Assembly: GCA_963727525.1 (NCBI GenBank)
Contig: CAVSGO010000006.1
Location: 1 to 64,000, forward strand
Length of the DNA stretch: 64,000 nucleotides
Direction: 5' to 3'
From: an uncultured bacterium
GTDB taxonomy: Bacteria; Krumholzibacteriota; Krumholzibacteriia; LZORAL124-64-63
The position numbers and the translations under genes are program-made. The notes under the pieces are model-generated. The model was not told the origin of the DNA. It searched no databases and saw only the letters and a list, made by a program, of their open reading frames with translations. Positions 28,082 through 55,287 of the stretch are shown here, in pieces (the stretch's first letter is position 1; each line of letters begins with the position of its first letter).

Positions 28082-31000
28082 ATGGACCCGTGGATGAAGC
28101 TGGGCGACCTCCTTGATATGGTCTCGCGCCTCGACCTCGTGCAGGGGGTCGAGGGCGACCTGCGCCAACGCAAGCGCAAGGGCGTGGTGGCGCTCGTCGT
28201 GGCGGGCATCGTGCAGGTGGTGCTGGCGGCGGCCCAGAAGGACTACCTGCGCGAGGTCGGTCAGCTCGTCAAGAACCTCGCCACCGGCCGGTGGCGCGAG
28301 ATCTTCGCCACCGCAAATCTCGACACGTTGTTCGGCGTGGTGGTGCTCGTGGCGGGGGTGACGATCTTCATCCTCGTGCGCTGGAGCCGCTTCCTGCTGC
28401 ACGAGTCGCAGGCGCCGTTCCGCTACACCTTCTCCATCGCGCCATTCAAGTCGATGCCCGAGGGAGCACCGCCGTCCGACGATCCCCTCGTCGGCAACCT
28501 CGCCCTGCTGCACGACGACCTGATCGACAAGCTCAATGCCAACATCCGCCGCTTCTCGATCCTCGATGTCGATGCGATCAAGACGGCGGCCAGCCAGGAT
28601 CTCAGCTCACACATTCACGTGCACGGCCACTTCGCCCGGCGCGCGCTCGACAGCGGCGAGGACGGCGTGCAGGTGATGACCCGCATCCGCATCGGCAATC
28701 CGGAGCGTCCCGAGCAACAGGCGCCGCGGGTCGACTTCGCCACGACCGATGCCACGGTCACACCCGACGCGCAATACCGCCAGCTCCGGGAGCTGGTGTA
28801 CTCGCGCGTGGCCACGGCAATCTATCACCAGATCCGCGACGACATCCGCCAGAAGATCACGCTGTTTCCCACCTGGTCGTTGCGGGCGGTGGGGCTTTAC
28901 CACGAGGCCAAGGACTTCGAGGAATCGAACACCGTCGACGCCTACGACTACGCAATCGAGCTTTATCAGGAGGCGCTGAACGCTTTCGAGAAGCGCGGCG
29001 GACGGGGGCTGCGCGCCGCCCTCCTGAAGTGGCCCCTGCTGTGGCGCGTCGTGTGCCGGTCGCAGCTGATCGAGGCGCGCACCCGCATCGCCTATAGCCG
29101 TTGCCTCGTGTACCGCGCCACGGTGTCCACCCTCGCTGGCCGCGCGAGCAACCCCCTGTTTCCGGTGCCGGAGCAGCTCGAAGCGGCGCTGGCGGTGTTG
29201 CGCACCCTCTACGACCGCGCACGCGGCGGCCGCGACACCTTCGTGACCTACCCGCGAGCCTGGCGCGCCTCGCATCGGGAGCCGCGCTTCCAGGAGTATC
29301 GGCGCGCGTTGTTCGAGGCGCTGTCCGTGGCTTCGCTGGCGTGGAGCCAGATCGGGTCGACCGACCGGGCCATCGAGCACCTCGACGCGGCCAAGGATGT
29401 GGCGCCCGATCTCACGGAGAACGACGCCCTCTACCTCCTGGCGCAGGCCGAGACCGTGTCCGACTTGCACACGCGCTTGCAGCTCCTGCGCACTGCGTCC
29501 GACATGGCGCCCACCTTCGAGATCGTGCGCTACCGCCTGGCCGACCAGTCGGATCTGCAACTCCGCACGCGCAACGAATTGACGCCCGAGCGGGCGGCGC
29601 CGGTGCTGGCGGCCTTCCTCGACGTTTTGCGCATCAATCCGGGCAACATCGGGGCCTACGCGGCCTTCGGTCACCTCAAATGGCTGCTCGGCGACCATGA
29701 TGCCGCGTCCCGCGCCTTCCGCGAGGGGCTCGCGGTCAAGGCTATCCGCATGCAGACGTACGTGGGCGACCTGAATTACGGTCTGGCGCGGATCGCCGCC
29801 GAGGCCGGTCGGTTCAACGAGAGCTTCGATCTCTACCAGAAGGCGCTGGCGGCCGATCCGGGCGTGGGCGTGCACATCGCGCTGCGCACCCGCTCGCTCA
29901 CGCGGTACTACGATCGCATGGTCGACTCCATGCTCGAGCGCTACGAGCGCTTCATGACGACCGCCATCGCCCGCGGCGGCCAGTGCGACACGGTGAGCGA
30001 CCGCACCCTCGGCGGTGTGCTCAGTTTCGTGCTCAACGACTACGGCAACGCGGCCTTCCAGTACTTCGTGCGCACGGGCCAGGTCGCCTGCTGCGACCGC
30101 GCGCGCGAATCGTACCAGCACGCGATCAAGCGTTTCCCCGAGAATGCCGTGGCGTACTTCAACCTGAGCCGCACGCTCGGCTGGACCGGCTCCTCTACCG
30201 AGGAGAGCATCACGTATCTCGCGCGCGCCGAGCGCCTCGAGCCGAGCTGGCATGCGTTGCAGACGTATTCCATCGAGCAGCACATCACGATCATCCGCAA
30301 GGCGATCCAGTCGCTCGAGAACGACCGCAACGCTGCGCTGCGCCGCCGTTCCGAGCTGGAACGCGAGAGGGCGGAACTCGAGACCCAGCGCGCGTCGCTC
30401 GACGAGAACTACGAGGCGCAGCGGGCGCCCACCACGGCAAAATATGAAGCCGCCAGCCTGACCAAGGGGCCGGATGTGCGGGGCCGTCTCGACGCCGAGT
30501 TGCAGCGCAATGCCGAGGTGCAGACGACCGTCGCGACCGAGATCGACACCATCGGCGAGAAGATCAACAACTACCGGGAGTCGCACCGCACGGAGATCCT
30601 GCCGCGTCTGCGCCGGATGATCCGCGCGTCGAGCCTCAGTTCGTTCCTCGATCTCACTGAACGGCACGACATGACCGAGTCCGTGGCCTCGCTCCTGCAG
30701 AGCCGGCTGCGCAATGACCGGCTCGACGAGAAGTCGGCCACCACCCTGCGCATCCTCGCCAAGCTGATGCCCGATCTGCTCGACGATGCCGACGATCACC
30801 GGAAGCTCGAATGCTGCCGCGACTTCTGCCGCTACGTGATGGACCGCTTCTACCCGGAAGACTTCGAGCTGACGATCACCCTGCAGAACCTGTACGTGCA
30901 ACTCGGCGACCACGACGGCGAGATCGCCTCGATCCAGTCCGTGCGCCGCGCGATCTCGTGGGCGCTGGACGATGATGGTACGAACTGGAATCTCCTCGAC

Positions 31001-32647
31001 TGGGCGCTGAGCTACTTCGACCGGCCGCTCTTCTCGTTCATCCGCGATGACGAGACGGGCCCTGCGCTGGACCGTGCGTTCGCGACCTCCGACAACGAGG
31101 CCGTGCTCGTGCCCGCCGCCGTGGACGATCTGTTCCGCAAGCAGGGCGTGCATCTGTCCGCGAGCGCCATGCTGCGCACGGTGGAGGCGGGGCGTCACTG
31201 GATCATCAGCGATGAGCACAAGCGCACCACGTACAGCCTCGCGCGCGGTAGCGGCGACGGCCGCTTCGACGTGACGTTCGACCTCCATCGCCGCGAGCGC
31301 CACCTGCTCCGTGCGCTCGACAACCTGAACGACATCCGCGACAAGCGACGCAACGCCGTCCTGCACGCCATGCTGGGCGGGGTCTATCGCGACGCCGGAC
31401 GCGACACCGAGGCCGTGATCCAGTACGAGAAGGCCGCCGCCCTGGATCCGCAGGCCTCCACGTACTTCACTCAGCTCGGCAATCATCATTACGTCCACGA
31501 TCGGTACGACCAGGCGGCGCAGGCTTACGACAAGGCGACCCGGCTCGAACCGACCAGCGACACGGCATTCTCCAACCTGGCGCTGGCCGAAGCGGCGGGC
31601 GAGACCGTGGCTCACTGGCAACGTGCCCTCGCGGCGCTCGAGCTGGCGGCGGCGCTGGTGCCCGGCAGCGGCAAGTACGACGATCGGCTCGCGGTGCTGC
31701 GCGAGAAGCTGAAGGCTGCGTCGTGCGTGGGTGAGGCGAATCTCGCGCGATATCCGGTGGTCACGCCCATCGCGTTGGAGGTGGCGGCAGACCTCGTGCC
31801 CTTCGTGGAAGGTCCGCCGGACAGCTCCGACATCTCGATGACCCTCGCCGAGCTGATCCGCCAGATGCGGCAGGGCATCCAGGACCAGTACGGCGTTCGA
31901 ATTCCCGGTGTGCGGGTGCGCGGCAACGAAGGCGACATGGTGCTGGGCACCTACCTGATCATGGTGAACGAGGTGCCGCTCGTGATGCAGTCGGTGCATG
32001 TCGACGCCGCTACGGGCGGCGCCCATGCTCTCGGCGCGATCGTCGCCCAGCTGCGCCTCGTGCTCGAGAACAACCTCGCCGGGTTCGTGGGCGTGCAGGA
32101 AGTGGCGAACCTGCTTGCCGAGGACGACGCGCTGCCGCGGCTCGAGGGGCAGTCGCTTTGCGCCTTCGCCCAGGTGCTGCGGGCGCTCGTCGAGGAGCGC
32201 GTGTCGATCAAGCCGCTGGGGGCCTTGCTCGGGTGCTTCCTGGCCGGCAGTGCGACGAACACACCGCTGTCGGTCATCGTGGAGCAGATGCGGGCGCTTG
32301 CGGATGTGACACCGTCATTGCCCGGTACGGCGTCAGGCGAGCGGCTGCTGCGGTTCGATGATGCGCTGACGGCCAGACTGGCGGCCGGACTGATCATCGA
32401 GGGTGATGTCGCCATGCTGCGCGGCGAACCGGCGCTCATCCAGGATACCCTCGCTGCCGTGCGCGAGGCCACATCCGGCGCCCTGGTCGGGACGGCGTCG
32501 GTCCTGGTGGTGGACGACCCGCGCCTGCGGCGGCCGTTGCGGCGGATCGTCGAGCTGGAGTTCACCGATCTGCCGGTGCTGGCGCGAAGCGAGCTGCCGC
32601 CGTCGGTCTCGGCGGACACGGCGCAGACGATCGGGGGCACGCCATGA
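28082..32647 (+). CDS. Membrane-anchored TPR/coiled-coil protein with C-terminal FlhA/SctV (FHIPEP) cytoplasmic domain
   Basis: Two N-terminal hydrophobic segments, many TPR-like helices, coiled coil; from ~31760 VTPIALEVAADLVP...MRQGIQDQYGVRIPGVRVRGN...FVGVQEV...VLRALVEERVSI...LRRPLRRIVELEFTDLPVLARSEL. Confidence 0.85.
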   Translation: MDPWMKLGDLLDMVSRLDLVQGVEGDLRQRKRKGVVALVVAGIVQVVLAAAQKDYLREVGQLVKNLATGRWREIFATANLDTLFGVVVLVAGVTIFILVRWSRFLLHESQAPFRYTFSIAPFKSMPEGAPPSDDPLVGNLALLHDDLIDKLNANIRRFSILDVDAIKTAASQDLSSHIHVHGHFARRALDSGEDGVQVMTRIRIGNPERPEQQAPRVDFATTDATVTPDAQYRQLRELVYSRVATAIYHQIRDDIRQKITLFPTWSLRAVGLYHEAKDFEESNTVDAYDYAIELYQEALNAFEKRGGRGLRAALLKWPLLWRVVCRSQLIEARTRIAYSRCLVYRATVSTLAGRASNPLFPVPEQLEAALAVLRTLYDRARGGRDTFVTYPRAWRASHREPRFQEYRRALFEALSVASLAWSQIGSTDRAIEHLDAAKDVAPDLTENDALYLLAQAETVSDLHTRLQLLRTASDMAPTFEIVRYRLADQSDLQLRTRNELTPERAAPVLAAFLDVLRINPGNIGAYAAFGHLKWLLGDHDAASRAFREGLAVKAIRMQTYVGDLNYGLARIAAEAGRFNESFDLYQKALAADPGVGVHIALRTRSLTRYYDRMVDSMLERYERFMTTAIARGGQCDTVSDRTLGGVLSFVLNDYGNAAFQYFVRTGQVACCDRARESYQHAIKRFPENAVAYFNLSRTLGWTGSSTEESITYLARAERLEPSWHALQTYSIEQHITIIRKAIQSLENDRNAALRRRSELERERAELETQRASLDENYEAQRAPTTAKYEAASLTKGPDVRGRLDAELQRNAEVQTTVATEIDTIGEKINNYRESHRTEILPRLRRMIRASSLSSFLDLTERHDMTESVASLLQSRLRNDRLDEKSATTLRILAKLMPDLLDDADDHRKLECCRDFCRYVMDRFYPEDFELTITLQNLYVQLGDHDGEIASIQSVRRAISWALDDDGTNWNLLDWALSYFDRPLFSFIRDDETGPALDRAFATSDNEAVLVPAAVDDLFRKQGVHLSASAMLRTVEAGRHWIISDEHKRTTYSLARGSGDGRFDVTFDLHRRERHLLRALDNLNDIRDKRRNAVLHAMLGGVYRDAGRDTEAVIQYEKAAALDPQASTYFTQLGNHHYVHDRYDQAAQAYDKATRLEPTSDTAFSNLALAEAAGETVAHWQRALAALELAAALVPGSGKYDDRLAVLREKLKAASCVGEANLARYPVVTPIALEVAADLVPFVEGPPDSSDISMTLAELIRQMRQGIQDQYGVRIPGVRVRGNEGDMVLGTYLIMVNEVPLVMQSVHVDAATGGAHALGAIVAQLRLVLENNLAGFVGVQEVANLLAEDDALPRLEGQSLCAFAQVLRALVEERVSIKPLGALLGCFLAGSATNTPLSVIVEQMRALADVTPSLPGTASGERLLRFDDALTARLAAGLIIEGDVAMLRGEPALIQDTLAAVREATSGALVGTASVLVVDDPRLRRPLRRIVELEFTDLPVLARSELPPSVSADTAQTIGGTP

Positions 32648-34233
32648 CGCCCCCGCGCACCATCACGGTCCGACTGGGAACCGAGCTGGCGGCGCTCGCG
32701 ACGGGCGTGCCCGCGCTCGCGGATCGCCTCACCGGCGTCGTGCGCGACCTGGTCCACGATCTGGCGATCCCGGTCGACTACACGGTGGAGGTGGTCGGCG
32801 CCGAGGATGGGCGCCAGGTCACGGTGACGATCGACGGCCAGCCCTGCCGCATACCGGTTTCCGTGGCGAGCACCAGCACCGCGACAGGCGACGACCTTGC
32901 GCGCGAACTCGTCGCCGCGCTGCACGCCAGCCGCGAGCTGCTGCTGCCTGCCGACGTCGCCGCGGCGTGCTGGTGCGACTGGATCGACACGACCTCGCCA
33001 CCGCCGGCGGGCACGCTCGCGCTGATGCGTGGTGTGCTGCGGCGCGGTGTCCGCCTCGAACGCCTTCGCGCGGTTCTCGGTTCGCCGATCTCCGATGCCG
33101 ATGCCCTCGAGCAGGCGCTCGCGGCGGTCGACGGACCGCGTTTGCGGGTCTTCGTGAGCACGGAGCAGCACCGGCGACTGTATGACGCGCATGGCGAACC
33201 CATCGCGCTGATTGGCGACTATCCCTCCATCGCGCGGTTGCTGGCCCTCGTCGCGGATGGCCTGTTCTACGAGCTGGGCATCGTGTATCGTCTCGACCAG
33301 GTGGAGACTGACCCGACGCTCGCCCCGGGCGAGATGCGCTTCGCGATCAACGGCATGCGCACGCCGGTGCGGATGGGGCTTCAGCCGGACGAGGTGATGG
33401 TCAACACCACCGTCGATCGGCTCGACCTCGGGGGCCGGCCGACGGTGAATCCGGCGAACCTCAACCCCTGCACCGTGCTGGCGCAGTCGCCGGACGCGCA
33501 GCAGGCGATCACCAGGCAGGGTCTCACGTCGTGGGACGACCATGGCTACCTCATCCTCGAGCTGAGCCAGGCCGTGCGTCGGTACGCCGGCTCGCTCATG
33601 AGCACGGCAGTGGCGCAGTTCCTCTGCGAGCGCTTGCAACTCGCCTTCCCCGACCTCGTGGCGGCGGCCTGCGATCGCTACGACCACGGCACGCTCGCCC
33701 GCGTCCTGCGCGGATTGCTCGACGAGGACATCTGTATCCGCGACCTGCGTACGATTCTCGAGACCCTGCTTGCCTTCCACGGCGTCGTGGACGCGCCGAC
33801 GGGCGAGCTGATCACGTTCCTCTCATCGCCGGGCATCGCGTTGCCCGTCGACGCCGGTTCGCTGCCCTTCCGCGACCCGGTGGTGGCGCGTGTGGAATGC
33901 GTACGCACCATGATGCAACGGGAGATCTCCTCCAGGTACACCCGCGGCCAGTCGGTGCTCACGCCCTTCCTGATCGATCCCGATATCGAGTCGCGGCTGA
34001 AGGACGAGGCCCCGCTGTCGGCCGATGAGCACGCGCGCCTGATCGACGCCATCGGGGTCGAGGTGATGCCGGATCCTGCGCCCACGGCGCCCGTGATCCT
34101 GACCACGGCCACGGTACGCTTGCGCCTGCACCGTGAGATCGAATACGAATACCCGCACGTCGTGGTCCTGGCCTACCAGGACCTGAGTCCCGCGCTGAAC
34201 CTCGAGGTGGCGGCGCGGATCACCTGGAACTGA
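32644..34233 (+). CDS. Soluble FlhA/SctV (FHIPEP) cytoplasmic-domain protein
   Basis: LFYELGI...DPTL, AFPDLV, VLRGLLDEDICIRDLRTILETL, ECVR...REIS, IDPDIE, PVILTT..VR, VLAYQDL; no TM segment; ATGA overlap with the upstream gene. Confidence 0.88.
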   Translation: MTPPRTITVRLGTELAALATGVPALADRLTGVVRDLVHDLAIPVDYTVEVVGAEDGRQVTVTIDGQPCRIPVSVASTSTATGDDLARELVAALHASRELLLPADVAAACWCDWIDTTSPPPAGTLALMRGVLRRGVRLERLRAVLGSPISDADALEQALAAVDGPRLRVFVSTEQHRRLYDAHGEPIALIGDYPSIARLLALVADGLFYELGIVYRLDQVETDPTLAPGEMRFAINGMRTPVRMGLQPDEVMVNTTVDRLDLGGRPTVNPANLNPCTVLAQSPDAQQAITRQGLTSWDDHGYLILELSQAVRRYAGSLMSTAVAQFLCERLQLAFPDLVAAACDRYDHGTLARVLRGLLDEDICIRDLRTILETLLAFHGVVDAPTGELITFLSSPGIALPVDAGSLPFRDPVVARVECVRTMMQREISSRYTRGQSVLTPFLIDPDIESRLKDEAPLSADEHARLIDAIGVEVMPDPAPTAPVILTTATVRLRLHREIEYEYPHVVVLAYQDLSPALNLEVAARITWN

Positions 34234-34466: not shown

Positions 34467-34853
34467 ATGCCTGCCATGACGGAAATCGTGCGCTTCGATC
34501 CCAGCGCCCCGATCCAGATCAACATCGTCTCGCGCTCGCCGCACGTGGTGGCTTTCCGCGTGTGGACGCAAGCGCCCGGTCAGGCCGACTGGGCTACCGT
34601 CTTCACCGGCAAGACCGACGACAATGTGCCCGACCACATCGAGATCGCCGCCTTGCCCGACAACGCGCTCATCGCGTGGTGGCTCGGCGTGGGCGGCAAC
34701 GCCAAGACGCCGTTCCGTACCGTGATCACGCTCGCTCAGGACGGCCGTATCCTCGACGGCGGCACGCGTCTGGAAGAGGGCAAGGTCGACGACGACGGCC
34801 TTGCCTTCGTCGAGGGCAAGATCAACCTCGTCGCCCAGAGGGAGACACCATGA
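34467..34853 (+). CDS. Hypothetical beta-strand-rich cytoplasmic protein (128 aa)
   Basis: AAGGAG RBS, natural composition, ATGA overlap with the next gene. Confidence 0.75.
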   Translation: MPAMTEIVRFDPSAPIQINIVSRSPHVVAFRVWTQAPGQADWATVFTGKTDDNVPDHIEIAALPDNALIAWWLGVGGNAKTPFRTVITLAQDGRILDGGTRLEEGKVDDDGLAFVEGKINLVAQRETP

Positions 34854-35920
34854 CCACGCGAATCCGGATCACGTGTGCAATGTTCGTGCTGGTCGCCGCG
34901 GGGCTCGTGTCTCTGGTGCCGGCACCACTCCTGGCGGTCGACGATGCGAGCAGCGGACTCGATCTGCTATCGCCCCCGGCCTCGCCGGCGTTCACCCTGC
35001 TCGGCGCCACGCCGGAGACGATCCATCGCCCGGAGACGCTCCAGGATCTGGGCGTGGACATGCGGTCGGGCGTTAGCGGCGACGGTCGGGCGGTGAGCGG
35101 ATTCGCGCTCGAGTTCTCGGCCAATCAGATCCTCAAGCCGGCCATCGATCTGAAGCGATACCGCGAGAGCTGGTCGGCCTTCGCGCTGCAGAACCTGCGC
35201 GTGTCGCTGGCCACAGTGCGCGCGGCCGGCGATTCGACGGCCACCGACCTCGCGCTCGGGCTCAGCTTCCCGCTCTTCAACCGCGCCGATCCCATGCGCG
35301 ACAAGGCGTACAGCGATGCCCTCGGCGAGGTTCTCCTGAACGCGGCGCCGTCGCAACCAGGCCAGGACCGCACGATGCTCGAGGCCCGGGCGCGCGAGCA
35401 GCGCCAGGCGCTCTTCGCGCAGTGGCGCGCCGATCACTGGAACGCCTCGCGCGCCGAGATCGCGATGGCGGTGGGCGGCCGGCTCATGGATTCGAAGTTC
35501 GACCAGCTCTACGGCTCGCGCGTCGCGGTGTGGTCGACCCTCGGGCTCCGGCTCGGCACCTGGGGCCAGTTCCTTGCCCTCGCGCGCTACGATCACCTGT
35601 GGGACATCCCGGATCAGCCGGGCGGCGACCAGATCCAGTACGGCGGTCGGATCATCGCGGGTTCGGGTTCGTTCAATCTCTACGTCGAGATGCTAGGGCG
35701 ACGCACGTCCTTCGACACCGCCGTGCTGCCTGATGGCAGCGACTCGGACACGAGCGGTTCGTGGGCCTTCGGCGCCGAGTATCGCATCGCGCAGGGCATC
35801 TGGGTCATGACTGGGCTGGGCAGCCGCTTCGACGAGGCCGTCGCCGGCGCCAGCCGCACGCAGGTGGCTCTGGGCTTGAAGTGGGGCCTCGCCCGCGCGT
35901 CGCGGCTGGGAACGCATTGA
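34850..35920 (+). CDS. Secreted protein, probable outer-membrane beta-barrel
   Basis: Signal peptide, PASPAFTLLG motif, amphipathic strands (WAFGAEYRIAQGIWV, VALGLKWGL). Confidence 0.7.
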   Translation: MTTRIRITCAMFVLVAAGLVSLVPAPLLAVDDASSGLDLLSPPASPAFTLLGATPETIHRPETLQDLGVDMRSGVSGDGRAVSGFALEFSANQILKPAIDLKRYRESWSAFALQNLRVSLATVRAAGDSTATDLALGLSFPLFNRADPMRDKAYSDALGEVLLNAAPSQPGQDRTMLEARAREQRQALFAQWRADHWNASRAEIAMAVGGRLMDSKFDQLYGSRVAVWSTLGLRLGTWGQFLALARYDHLWDIPDQPGGDQIQYGGRIIAGSGSFNLYVEMLGRRTSFDTAVLPDGSDSDTSGSWAFGAEYRIAQGIWVMTGLGSRFDEAVAGASRTQVALGLKWGLARASRLGTH

Positions 35921-52045: not shown

Positions 52046-52627
52046 ATGACGGAAGAATCGCGGGTCGACGTGACGCGCATGCTGCAGTCCATCGAAGGTT
52101 CGGCCGCCGACGAAGGCGCGGCCAATCGCCTCTTCGCGGCCGTCTATGACGAGCTGCACGGCATCGCCGCCGGGCTCATGCGCCGCGAGCGTGACGACCA
52201 CACCCTGCAGCCCACGGCCCTCGTGCACGAGGCGTACATGCGCCTCGTCGACCAGACCCGGGCCGACTGGCAGAACCGTGCCCACTTCTACGGCATCGCC
52301 GCGCGCGCGATGCGCCAGATCCTGGTGGATCACGCGCGCAAGCACACCGCCGACAAGCGCGGTGGCCAGTGGCGCCGCGTGACCCTGGACGACAACGTGG
52401 CCGAGGCCGAGCAACTCTCCCTCGATATCCTCGCCGTACACGAGGCCCTCGAGCAACTCGCCCTCCGGGACGAGCGCATGGCGAAGGTGGTGGAGCTGCG
52501 CATCTTCGCGGGCCTGCACGCGCGCGAGGCCGCGCACGTGCTCGGGGTGTCGAAGCGCACCGTGGACGAGGACTGGCGCGTGGCGCGCATGCTGCTGGGC
52601 CGCGCGCTGTCGGCGGGCGCGGATTGA
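52046..52627 (+). CDS. ECF sigma factor of the Ser/Thr-kinase-associated type
   Basis: VYDELHGIA, HTLQPTALVHEAYMRL, WQNRAHF, MRQILVDHAR...KRGG, VVELRIFAGL; GGGAGG RBS. Confidence 0.92.
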   Translation: MTEESRVDVTRMLQSIEGSAADEGAANRLFAAVYDELHGIAAGLMRRERDDHTLQPTALVHEAYMRLVDQTRADWQNRAHFYGIAARAMRQILVDHARKHTADKRGGQWRRVTLDDNVAEAEQLSLDILAVHEALEQLALRDERMAKVVELRIFAGLHAREAAHVLGVSKRTVDEDWRVARMLLGRALSAGAD

Positions 52628-55287
52628 TGAACGACGAGCGCTTCGCCCGGTTGCGCGCCATCCTGCTGCATGCCGCCGACCTGCCGGTCGACGCGCGCAG
52701 TGCCTACCTTGGCGATGCCTGCGCCGGCGACGCGGAGCTGCGGGCCGAGGTGGAGGCGCTTCTGCCCCATGACGTGGATGCGCCGTCGATCGTCGCCACG
52801 TCCGGCCTTGGCCGTCGTCTCGCCGCGGAGGCGGGGCAGGCATTCCTGCGCGCGCCGAACGCCGCACCCCCGGAGCGCATCGGTCCCTATCGTATCCTGG
52901 AGGTGCTCGGCGAGGGCGGCATGGGCGTGGTCTATCGCGCGGAGCAGGAGGAGCCCATACGCCGCGAGGTGGCGCTCAAGCTCGTGCGCTGGGGCTTCGA
53001 CACCGATCAGGTGGCCACGCGCTTCGCCGCCGAACGCCAGGTGCTGGCGCGCATGGAACACCCGCACATCGCGCGCGTGCTCGACGCCGGTCAGGACGAC
53101 GCCGGCCGACCTTACTTCGTGATGGAGCTGGTGCGGGGTGTGCCCATCACGGCGTACTGCGAGCAGCACGCGCTGTCGGTCGACGGCCGGCTGGCCCTAA
53201 TGCTCGCCATCTGTCGCGCCGTGCAGCATGCGCATCAGAAGGGCGTGATCCACCGCGACCTCAAGCCCTCGAACCTGCTCGTGAGCGAGAGCGATGGCGC
53301 GCCGCTGCCCAAGGTGATCGACTTTGGTATTGCCAAGGCTCTCGACCAGGCCGACGACGGTCTCACGCGCGAGGGCCAGCCCATCGGCACGGTGCGCTAC
53401 ATGAGCCCGGAGCAGGCGCGCGGCGTGAGCAGCGAGATCGACGTGCGCAGCGATGTGTATGCCCTCGGCGTGATCCTCTACGAGCTGCTCACCGGGGCGC
53501 CACCCTACGTCGCCGATGAGACCTCGCTGATCGGTCAGATGCGGGTGGTGATCGAGGCGCCGCCCCGGTCGTTTCGCGAGACCGCACCCGCCGATCGCCA
53601 CCTCGACGCTGACCTGGAGACGATCGTCCGCAAGGCCCTGGCGAAGGACCCGGCCGAACGCTACCAGAGCGCCGCTGCCCTGGGTGAGGACATCGAGCGC
53701 TTCCAGGCCTCGCTACCCATCCTCGCGCGCCCGCCCAGCGCCATGTATCAGCTCCGCAAACTGGTGGCGCGCAACCGCGTGCCATCGACATTGATCGCGG
53801 GCATCGTGCTGCTGATCGTGGGCTTCGGCATCTGGATGAGCGTGCTCTACGTGCGATCGGCGCGCAATCTGCGCCGCGCCGTCGTCGCCGAGAGCGAGTC
53901 GCGTCAGGTGACGGACTTCGTCACCGGTCTGTTCGAGATCTCGCATCCGAGCGAGTCGCGCGGCAATGCGGTGACGGCGCGCGAGATCCTCGACACCGGC
54001 GCCGAGAAGATCGAGACCGAACTGGGCGATCAGCCGGAGGTGCAGGAGCGGCTGCTGCACACGCTCGGCGTGGTGTACTCGGGTCTGGGGCTCTATGACA
54101 GATCGGGAGAGCTGCTGGAGGCCGCCCTCGCGCGCCGTCGCGCCGTCGGCCACGATGACAACCTCGAGGTCGCGTCGGTGCTCACCGACCTGGGCGCCAT
54201 CTATCGCACGCGCGGCCAGGTCGCCCAGGCCGACACCGCCTACCAGGCTGCCCTGGACATCCGCCAGCGTCTGCTGCCCGCCACCGACTGGCGCGTGGCC
54301 GCGGCCGAGGCCAACGTCGGCGGGATCCGGGCGCTGCAGGGCCAGACCGACGAGGCGGCCCGGATGCTCGTGGACGCCGCCTCCTCGCTCGAAGCCCACG
54401 CGCCGGCCGGCTCGCTCGAGCTGCCGGCCACCTGGAACAGCCTGGCGCAGGTGCGCAAGGCGCAGCGCGATTTCGCCGCCGCCGAGTCGCTCGACACGCG
54501 GGCCCTCGCCCGTCGCGAGGAGCTGCTGCCGCCCGACCACCCGGAGATCGCCGAGTCGCTCAACAACCTCGCCGCCCTCTACTGGGCCCAGGGTCGTCTC
54601 GACGAGGCGGCACCCCTGGCCGAGCGCGCCCTCGCCATCCAGGAGAAGATCCTCGGCGCCGACCACCCCGACTTCGCCCTGGCGTTGCTCAACCAGGCCG
54701 CCATCGACCAGGACGTGGGCCGCCTCGAGATCGCCGAGCGCGAGCTGACGCGCGCGGTGGGCATTCTCGAGCGCAGCCTCGGCCCCGACGACGTGCAGGT
54801 GGCGTACGCCCTGAACAACCTCGGCACCCTGTACCGCAAGCAGGACCGCCTGGATCTCGCCGCGTCCACCCTCGAGCGTTCCCTCGCGATCAAGCGCGCG
54901 AAGCTGGGCGACGATCACCTCTCGGTGGCTACCGCCCGCAACAACCTCGGTGAGGTGCGCCTGGCTCAGGGCCAGACCCGCATCGCCATCGCACTCTTCA
55001 CCGAGGCCATGGCCATCCGCACGCAGCACTACGGCGGCGACGACGCCCGCACGGCATTGCCCATGCACAACCTCGGCCTCGCGTATCTGAAGTCCGGCCG
55101 GCTGGACTCGGCAAGCGCCGACCTCGACCGCGCCCTCGCCATTCGCGTCGCGAAGCTGGGCCCGGTGCACGTGCGGATCGCGGAATCCCTGGAGGCCTGC
55201 GCCGAGCTGGCGCGGAAACTGGGGCAGAGTGCGAGGGCGGACTCCTTGCTGGCGCGAGCGAAGGCGGTACGGGGGAAGCTCGAGTAG
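52627..55287 (+). CDS. Ser/Thr kinase with TM segment and C-terminal TPR repeats
   Basis: LGEGGMG, HRDLKPSN, DFG, YMSPEQ; TM; SLNNLA-type TPRs; TGATG overlap with the sigma gene. Confidence 0.93.
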   Translation: MNDERFARLRAILLHAADLPVDARSAYLGDACAGDAELRAEVEALLPHDVDAPSIVATSGLGRRLAAEAGQAFLRAPNAAPPERIGPYRILEVLGEGGMGVVYRAEQEEPIRREVALKLVRWGFDTDQVATRFAAERQVLARMEHPHIARVLDAGQDDAGRPYFVMELVRGVPITAYCEQHALSVDGRLALMLAICRAVQHAHQKGVIHRDLKPSNLLVSESDGAPLPKVIDFGIAKALDQADDGLTREGQPIGTVRYMSPEQARGVSSEIDVRSDVYALGVILYELLTGAPPYVADETSLIGQMRVVIEAPPRSFRETAPADRHLDADLETIVRKALAKDPAERYQSAAALGEDIERFQASLPILARPPSAMYQLRKLVARNRVPSTLIAGIVLLIVGFGIWMSVLYVRSARNLRRAVVAESESRQVTDFVTGLFEISHPSESRGNAVTAREILDTGAEKIETELGDQPEVQERLLHTLGVVYSGLGLYDRSGELLEAALARRRAVGHDDNLEVASVLTDLGAIYRTRGQVAQADTAYQAALDIRQRLLPATDWRVAAAEANVGGIRALQGQTDEAARMLVDAASSLEAHAPAGSLELPATWNSLAQVRKAQRDFAAAESLDTRALARREELLPPDHPEIAESLNNLAALYWAQGRLDEAAPLAERALAIQEKILGADHPDFALALLNQAAIDQDVGRLEIAERELTRAVGILERSLGPDDVQVAYALNNLGTLYRKQDRLDLAASTLERSLAIKRAKLGDDHLSVATARNNLGEVRLAQGQTRIAIALFTEAMAIRTQHYGGDDARTALPMHNLGLAYLKSGRLDSASADLDRALAIRVAKLGPVHVRIAESLEACAELARKLGQSARADSLLARAKAVRGKLE

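Follow-up and report, generated by a model that had tools for sequence, protein, structure and literature searches.

Paralogous SctV-type cytoplasmic domains divided between two adjacent genes suggest a secretion-independent switch

The export-gate proteins SctV and FlhA are treated as dedicated markers of injectisomes and flagella. Their cytoplasmic domain is built of four subdomains (SD1-SD4); in the accessible text of PMC9163089, SD2 of YscV is described as an insertion in SD1 (residues 439-492), its deletion is tolerated in MxiA, and the salt bridges E431-R560, D511-R592 and E517-R563 hold the YscV ring. The accessible text of that paper and of PMC8213127 further places the docking of chaperones and of the tetratricopeptide repeat (TPR) protein YscY in the SD2-SD4 cleft of export gates. 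Here we describe two adjacent genes, A and B, which encode SctV-type cytoplasmic domains and lie in a 64,000-nucleotide (nt) stretch of contig CAVSGO010000006.1 (assembly GCA_963727525.1) of an uncultured Krumholzibacteriota bacterium, hereafter the window. We lean slightly towards the view that A and B form a secretion-independent heterodimer, a switch in the cytoplasm that would belong to a conflict (immune-type) system.

The two proteins have the four-subdomain fold of the solved domains of CdsV (6WA6), YscV (7ALW/7QIJ) and FlhA (3MIX), with Z about 25, and share their inter-subunit interface residues. Unlike SctV and FlhA, A and B lack the SctV membrane domain (the Pfam match lies only above model position ~320), score 48-87 bits against TIGR01398 and TIGR01399, whose cut-offs are about 700-770, and have no export-apparatus genes beside them. 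Whereas SctV and FlhA form a homo-nonamer, A and B appear to be two paralogues with complementary faces, belonging to a family that includes archaeal members and is fused to TPR, STAND, TIR or two-helix heads. The YscV:YscX:YscY complex, in the accessible text of PMC9163089, shows that a TPR protein can dock on the SD2-SD4 cleft of SctV; here, in contrast, it is the A copy that bears the TPRs, as part of its own chain, and the B copy that has the conserved SD2. EAD2, caspase, CHAT, TIR, NACHT/STAND and FGE-sulfatase partners are shared with described conflict systems (PMC7159879, PMC8195603), but the constant A-B component is not a MoxR-vWA or GTPase module, and neither FlhA nor FHIPEP is mentioned in the main texts or supplements (all but one file) of these papers. 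Likewise, a metallo-beta-lactamase (MBL) and trypsin-like cassette beside the pair in Pelagihabitans, with TPR arrays as candidate sensors, recalls Avs/AVAST type 1 and Lamassu, but this locus has no STAND match in A and no SMC gene among its open reading frames (ORFs), and its constant core is the SctV pair. The accessible main text of the ParA immunity preprint contains no mention of the A-B family, and we found no description of it in the accessible open literature, subscription papers lying outside that scope. The pair may work like the TPR-sensor/protease-effector conflict systems, but no described counterpart of its constant core was found.

One line of evidence is the way in which the surfaces of an SctV ring are divided between A and B. 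All 214 domains (157 A, 30 B and 27 fused B) have a Myxococcota SctV as their best match among the sequences sampled, in which other SctV were represented by two candidates only and Chlamydia by none; mean scores are 154-220 bits against Myxococcota SctV and 56-62 against FlhA. This rules out flagellar FlhA as the nearest source among these sequences. An earlier sequence-only reading of gene A had named its C-terminal part an FlhA domain, which holds for the FlhA/SctV fold but not for the ancestry. In the tree the A clade (40 rows, support 99) stands apart from the B clade (21 rows, support 100), with B among Myxococcota SctV; row L081_A_193 is a mislabelled duplicate of L081_B2. The cytoplasmic domain of the Myxococcota SctV proteins (L014-L085) is itself strikingly slow-evolving, with end branches of 0-0.1 versus a median of 0.51. 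Among 350 positions of Myxococcota SctV, 36 are kept by A only, 78 by B only and 30 by both, the last mostly in the hydrophobic core, and in the Myxococcota sequence motifs of A and motifs of B are combined in mosaic fashion.

The salt-bridge sites of YscV, mapped by hand through alignment to solved structures, fall along the same divide. The E431 site is Glu in 143 of 157 A domains versus 5 of 57 B domains (often Asp in split B), the D511 site is acidic in 104/157 versus 6/57, and the E517 site in 131/157 versus 0/57; conversely, Arg occupies the R560 site in 52 of 57 B domains versus 13 of 157 A domains, the R563 site in 47/57 versus 16/157, and the R592 site in 42/57 versus 9/157. YscV E531 is not conserved in the Myxococcota set. 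The window A retains two of the three acidic residues (E1297, E1340), with Gly at the third site, and 31 of the 36 A-specific residues (median 30); the window B has all three ring arginines. The acidic and basic partners thus appear divided between A and B, with both ring faces not found on one chain. Judged at the level of sequence, A keeps the linker and the acidic ring face and B the basic ring face, SD2 and SD4.

Structure prediction of B with the A domain gave an ipSAE of 0.86 in three runs (best of three controls 0.00), with contact agreement of at least 94% and a partner predicted local distance difference test (pLDDT) score of at least 84; the mark used for such complexes was passed in 116 of 157 solved pairs, against 2 of 215 mismatched ones. 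Each protein conserves the columns that make its own predicted contacts: those on the A side have an identity to the source of 0.35 in A and 0.19 in B, and those on the B side 0.14 in A and 0.50 in B, the columns not being independent of each other. The modelling points to an obligate A-B heterodimer instead of a homo-ring. The initial suggestion that A retains a ring-forming SD1/SD3/SD4 therefore stands only in part: the subdomains are present, but the ring surface is half kept, its basic face being lost in A and retained in B. Because of this loss A alone is unlikely to be a homo-oligomerising output, and of the proposed receptor-like layout, a TPR sensor with an oligomerising output, what survives is the arrangement of TPRs and an assembly domain.

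The pairing is consistent across the family. A GTDB scan with the B alignment, of which the best 80 loci were kept, recovered among these 55 loci with a full SctV/FlhA membrane domain (mostly Myxococcota), 24 without it and one edge fragment (L041, a contig-edge piece of SctV). A lies directly upstream of, or is fused to, B in 19 of 19 scorable loci among these, a count that leaves out L081 (separate origin) and L017, L054, L055 and L066 (contig edges). Among the hosts are Chloroflexota, Acidobacteriota, Bacteroidota, Verrucomicrobiota, Gammaproteobacteria, Smithella, a Methanomicrobiales archaeon and a Heimdallarchaeote. In an independent scan on the N-terminal motifs of A, which yielded 36 metagenome loci, the scorable loci show the SctV domain and then B in 10/10 cases, versus B in 0/9 of those ending in long TPR arrays, two of which have at most 1 kb downstream. 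A membrane-domain FlhA/SctV near full strength was not found in 17 of 24 carrier genomes, mostly incomplete metagenome-assembled genomes, one weak sub-threshold match aside, and SctR/FliP was found in none of the five carriers searched, which are subject to the same incompleteness. The window genome has a separate full FlhA and FliP on another contig (C7). Within its phylum A or B occurs in 1 of 208 genomes, the window's only, the other matches being open frames of FlhA length; among viral sequences in IMG/VR, 45 pattern matches gave no confirmed case.

The retrieved proteins include 27 A-B fusions. By their N-termini, the largest classes among 155 A entries are a soluble helical-TPR class (59), the two-helix class of the window (28), a class with an unknown ~300-aa domain (23) and a STAND class (5), besides single fusions to TIR, DUF4062 and DUF4118; a STAND NTPase core occurs only in the five-protein subclass and in L007. 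One operon, L007:745-11347, holds two A genes (a STAND-A without SD2 and one of a 650-aa type) with a single B, and the 879-aa gene between the two A genes recurs in L051. A cyanobacterial pair of TIR-SctV-C fusions (L081:7953-11068), the first of which has no SD2, seems to have co-opted the SctV cytoplasmic domain independently, since its second member groups away from both A and B.

Turning to the A domain itself, the sequence-only reading had proposed an FlhA-C-like region from which SD2 has been deleted, and both parts are borne out by alignment and structure prediction. FHIPEP matches residues 1319-1509 (E 3.5e-18); the AlphaFold model of residues 1222-1521 is confident (pLDDT 93.8, predicted template modelling score 0.90) and superimposes on FlhA/SctV cytoplasmic domains with Z 25.7 and a root-mean-square deviation of 2.8 A over 281 aligned residues, the best unrelated fold reaching Z 5.5. 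The alignment to solved structures falls into two blocks with ~42 residues absent between them and the gap in frame: YLIMVNEVPLV occupies residues 1291-1301, AIVAQL... starts at 1319, and the SD1 strand is separated from the next helix by 14 residues in A versus 56 in Chlamydia CdsV, or 21 versus 64 in Yersinia YscV, leaving SD1, SD3 and SD4. The deletion is nevertheless no special feature. A search with A's domain gave 936 cluster representatives at E <=0.001, which include some proportion of ordinary FlhA/SctV; the best 150 were examined. Among 158 scorable A-type domains, 145 keep SD2, 12 lack it and one is intermediate, the count of 12 being biased upward by a query itself without SD2 and including one protein (P0161) outside the A clade. 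This rules out SD2 loss as a defining novelty. In a tree made without SD2 columns the loss requires nine changes, at least four of them forced by strongly supported branches; an N-terminal tree of the membrane subtype requires at least three, and the window's two closest relatives retain SD2. SD2 is better conserved in B than in A (identity to the source consensus 0.51 versus 0.27), so A is able to drop it, and SD2 loss is a recurring side effect.

The remainder of A likewise agrees with the initial description of two N-terminal hydrophobic segments, TPR arrays and a coiled coil: in a hydropathy scan (threshold 1.7) only the two transmembrane (TM) helices listed in the table exceed the mark in A and none does in B, TPR families are matched, and the coiled coil is located. 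With ~30 residues between the helices and no third helix, the topology deduced from the sequence leaves no extracytoplasmic ligand-binding domain, and because the outer loop is so short any sensing by A would be cytoplasmic. No P-loop motif or NTPase family match marks a STAND NTPase core in the window A. Language-model features liken its alpha/beta domain to CsgG/LpoB/CadC-C1 (scores 0.84-0.87), which serves only as a lead. A chimeric assembly is unlikely because 27 other entries carry the same two-helix N-terminal class (a cluster of 28 with the window's own, one a duplicate), and the domain order is confirmed in P0006 and P0007. In B, the first 160 residues match the A profile (HHalign 94.7%, E 6e-8) and FHIPEP matches with E 4e-28; the model (pLDDT 85) has CdsV as its best structural match. 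The N-terminal domain of B, which is absent from A-B fusions, may cap its free face.

The suggestion of an immune-type role comes from the neighbours of the soluble forms. Effector genes lie directly upstream in 12 of 16 soluble-type genome loci: CHAT in six, caspase in three (one with EAD2), and one each with TIR-NACHT, STAND-A, and MBL with trypsin; the remaining four are two loci at contig edges, a broken one and one with a downstream MBL gene. The catalytic His and Cys are intact in 5/5 aligned CHAT and 3/3 aligned caspase proteins, and in some family members TIR and DUF4062 are fused directly. In the cultured Flavobacteriaceae Pelagihabitans pacificus, MBL and trypsin-like genes lie directly upstream of A-B and match the PADLOC LmuA/Avs1a models with E 1e-112 and 3e-35; no PADLOC model matches A, B or eight related A/B proteins, only partner or fused TIR domains being recognised. 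Interchangeable effector partners and a patchy spread across phyla are typical of conflict systems. A recurring secretion-independent pair, often beside immune-type proteases, thus suggests an undescribed defence or signalling switch.

In the mechanism that we propose, the cytoplasmic domain of a Myxococcota-type SctV would have been duplicated and its surfaces partitioned between A and B, with A predicted to bind B via the ancestral ring interface. B would supply the SD2-SD4 docking cleft, and A the TPRs and a variable head; with the cleft thus provided, SD2 of A would be dispensable and could be lost repeatedly. A foreign or stress ligand sensed by the TPRs of A or the cleft of B could alter the A-B assembly, possibly with ring closure on activation, and so activate the linked effector (CHAT, caspase, trypsin with MBL, TIR or STAND). 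In the window's subtype A would be tethered to the inner membrane with no adjacent effector gene, and we can only guess that the output comes either from the two-helix membrane head or from some partner whose gene lies elsewhere. An immune-type function is probable for the A-B family, and somewhat doubtful for the window's membrane subtype. A bolder version, in which a split export gate from the type III system of predatory myxobacteria became an immunity core reaching Asgard archaea, with the cleft of B as a decoy for invader proteins and activation closing an A-B ring that fires proteases or TIR, or clusters the two-helix head to damage the membrane, appears rather unlikely.

Several observations weigh against the conflict-system interpretation. 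The window neighbourhood is ordinary, with kinases, hydrolases and an ABC transporter and no defence island, and PADLOC models match neither A, B nor the two downstream ORFs. The membrane-type loci searched, several of which have short flanks, yielded no match to CHAT, caspase or partner genes, and the 12/16 neighbour count comes without a background rate. The carrier genomes are mostly incomplete. As SctV rings have already been solved, the pass of the predicted complex may be memory, indicating likeness and not binding; since B motifs served to retrieve the Myxococcota set, the closeness of B is partly by construction and only A's affinity is independent. The window B keeps 56 of the 78 B-specific residues, 10th lowest of 57. 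Finally, nine relatives of A's N-terminal part end in TPRs without an SctV domain, hence the membrane-TPR part can exist without the SctV module.

The last point bears on the possibility that the membrane-TPR protein works without the SctV module, which in the window's lineage would be an appendage in decay. TPR-only forms are scattered in the tree (five changes, four forced) and degenerate or broken copies occur (L008, L056, L057, L148, L177), but both window ORFs are intact and coupled, and A's retention of A-specific residues and confident domain model make decay improbable. An unlikely alternative, and the one nearest to the initial sequence-only idea, is a closed hetero-ring, in which A and B alternate via both faces, the second having co-diverged or being tether-held in fusions, to give (A-B)n, or three sets of A-C, B-C and B-N in nine positions, and so cluster attached effectors. 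The 27 fusions, the third degenerate SctV copy in B and the crystallisation of SctV domains as octamers, nonamers and decamers (accessible text of PMC9629515) would accommodate it; however, neither fused nor split forms conserve an acidic face on B or a basic face on A, B-N has no SD4 while the nonamer needs SD3/SD4 (accessible text of PMC9163089), and in the fusions the A and B anchor motifs stand just 87-105 residues apart, a spacing too short to contain B-N.

The pair could instead be a general, non-immune scaffold, serving either as a membrane docking site for cytoplasmic clients or chaperone-client complexes or as a route by which these reach a regulatory protease. B retains the SD2-SD4 cleft, which binds TPR chaperones in YscV (accessible text of PMC9163089), a SycD/LcrH-like gene follows B in both archaeal loci, and the membrane subtype has no effector neighbour. 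Interchangeable TIR, STAND, caspase, CHAT and MBL partners and a sporadic distribution across phyla argue the other way, and we regard the scaffold as quite unlikely. The Myxococcota ancestry could also mean that the module imitates a predatory myxobacterial export gate, by which it would detect secreted substrates of the predator inside the prey cell. B keeps source-specific cleft residues, archaea included, and M. xanthus lyses prey with a needle-less type III secretion system (accessible text of PMC10849154); ancestry is, however, no proof of the ligand, and since in the accessible text of the same paper that system has neither needle nor translocon, substrate delivery into the prey cytoplasm is not established, which leaves such an anti-predator decoy very unlikely. 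Regulation or poisoning of the host's own flagellar FlhA ring by the pair might be entertained for the window genome with its full FlhA and FliP; most carriers, however, have no detected export gate, and A scores 32 bits against its own FlhA versus ~140 against most Myxococcota SctV, making this highly improbable.

Irrespective of its function, the SctV cytoplasmic domain is here a separate, widespread family without secretion context, for which reason FHIPEP matches in archaea, Bacteroidota and Chloroflexota can be mis-annotated as secretion genes. The splitting of ring salt bridges between paralogues offers a natural example of the passage from homo-oligomer to heterodimer and maps the surfaces holding the SctV ring. 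If the immune-type interpretation is true, the pair would be a new core module for prokaryotic defence, and the presence of one effector-bearing operon in a cultured strain makes it directly testable. The features of the window pair are collected below; the start of gene B overlaps the stop of gene A by 4 nt.

Table 1. Features of genes A and B in the window (window coordinates)
Feature	Position	Strand	Description
Gene A	28082..32647	+	1521 aa: two TM helices, alpha/beta domain, TPRs, coiled coil, helical region, TPRs, SctV-C type A (SD2 deleted)
TM1	28181..28234	+	residues 34-51; family-conserved basic RQRKRK just before; N-terminus probably cytoplasmic
TM2	28328..28378	+	residues 83-99; basic residues follow; all downstream parts probably cytoplasmic
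Alpha/beta domain, conserved	28394..28891	+	about residues 105-270
N-terminal TPR-like array, conserved	28892..30271	+	about residues 271-730
Coiled-coil core	30305..30391	+	residues 742-770
Second TPR block	31289..31696	+	about residues 1070-1205
SctV cytoplasmic domain type A	31745..32644	+	residues 1222-1521; acidic ring face kept, ring arginines absent
17-residue stretch in place of SD2 insertion	31985..32035	+	
Gene B	32644..34233	+	529 aa, soluble; degenerate SctV-like N-domain and complete SctV-C type B
B N-terminal domain	32644..33123	+	third, degenerate SctV copy: SD1 and part of SD3, no SD2, no SD4
SctV-C type B	33124..34230	+	SD2 intact; basic ring face R366, R369, R426; B-specific ~30-aa insert in SD3

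Gene B is followed on the same strand by two unnamed ORFs (34467-35920, starts 34467 and 34853) encoding 128 aa and 355 aa, the latter with an apparent signal peptide. Neither has a Pfam, NCBIfam or PADLOC match or a counterpart in any other fetched locus, and both were dropped as system parts for want of a match in those loci. A promoter and terminator scan found nothing. Further on (35938-62758) there are five proteins ending in FlgD-Ig domains, and a kinase-TPR protein lies at 52369-55287.

The N-terminal relatives of A that end in TPRs (L145, L146, L152, L153, L155, L158, L160, L172, L176) indicate that the two-helix/alpha-beta/TPR part is a family of its own, and several of them sit after small lipoprotein-like or peptidoglycan-binding genes. 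Among the pair-bearing loci, SycD/LcrH-like type III chaperone genes lie directly after B in the Methanomicrobiales (L011:11516-11983) and Heimdallarchaeota (L012:11527-12012) loci, with 102.5 and 102.7 bits versus a curated cut-off of 104.8; such a gene closing both archaeal loci fits an injectisome-type origin. An unnamed ~350-aa protein precedes the CHAT gene in four loci (L011:4581-5636, L012:4460-5527, L013:1388-2470, L056:2635-3714); it is 28-54% identical across them and has no Pfam family, its largest Atlas cluster having 671 members. Two loci from unrelated phyla (L006:6092-9579, L058:11114-14462) share the same pair downstream of A-B, an unnamed ~663-aa protein and an MBL-fold gene, on opposite strands. 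In a single case a membrane-type A-B pair has a phage-tail-sheath gene (L179:1720-3294) immediately upstream.

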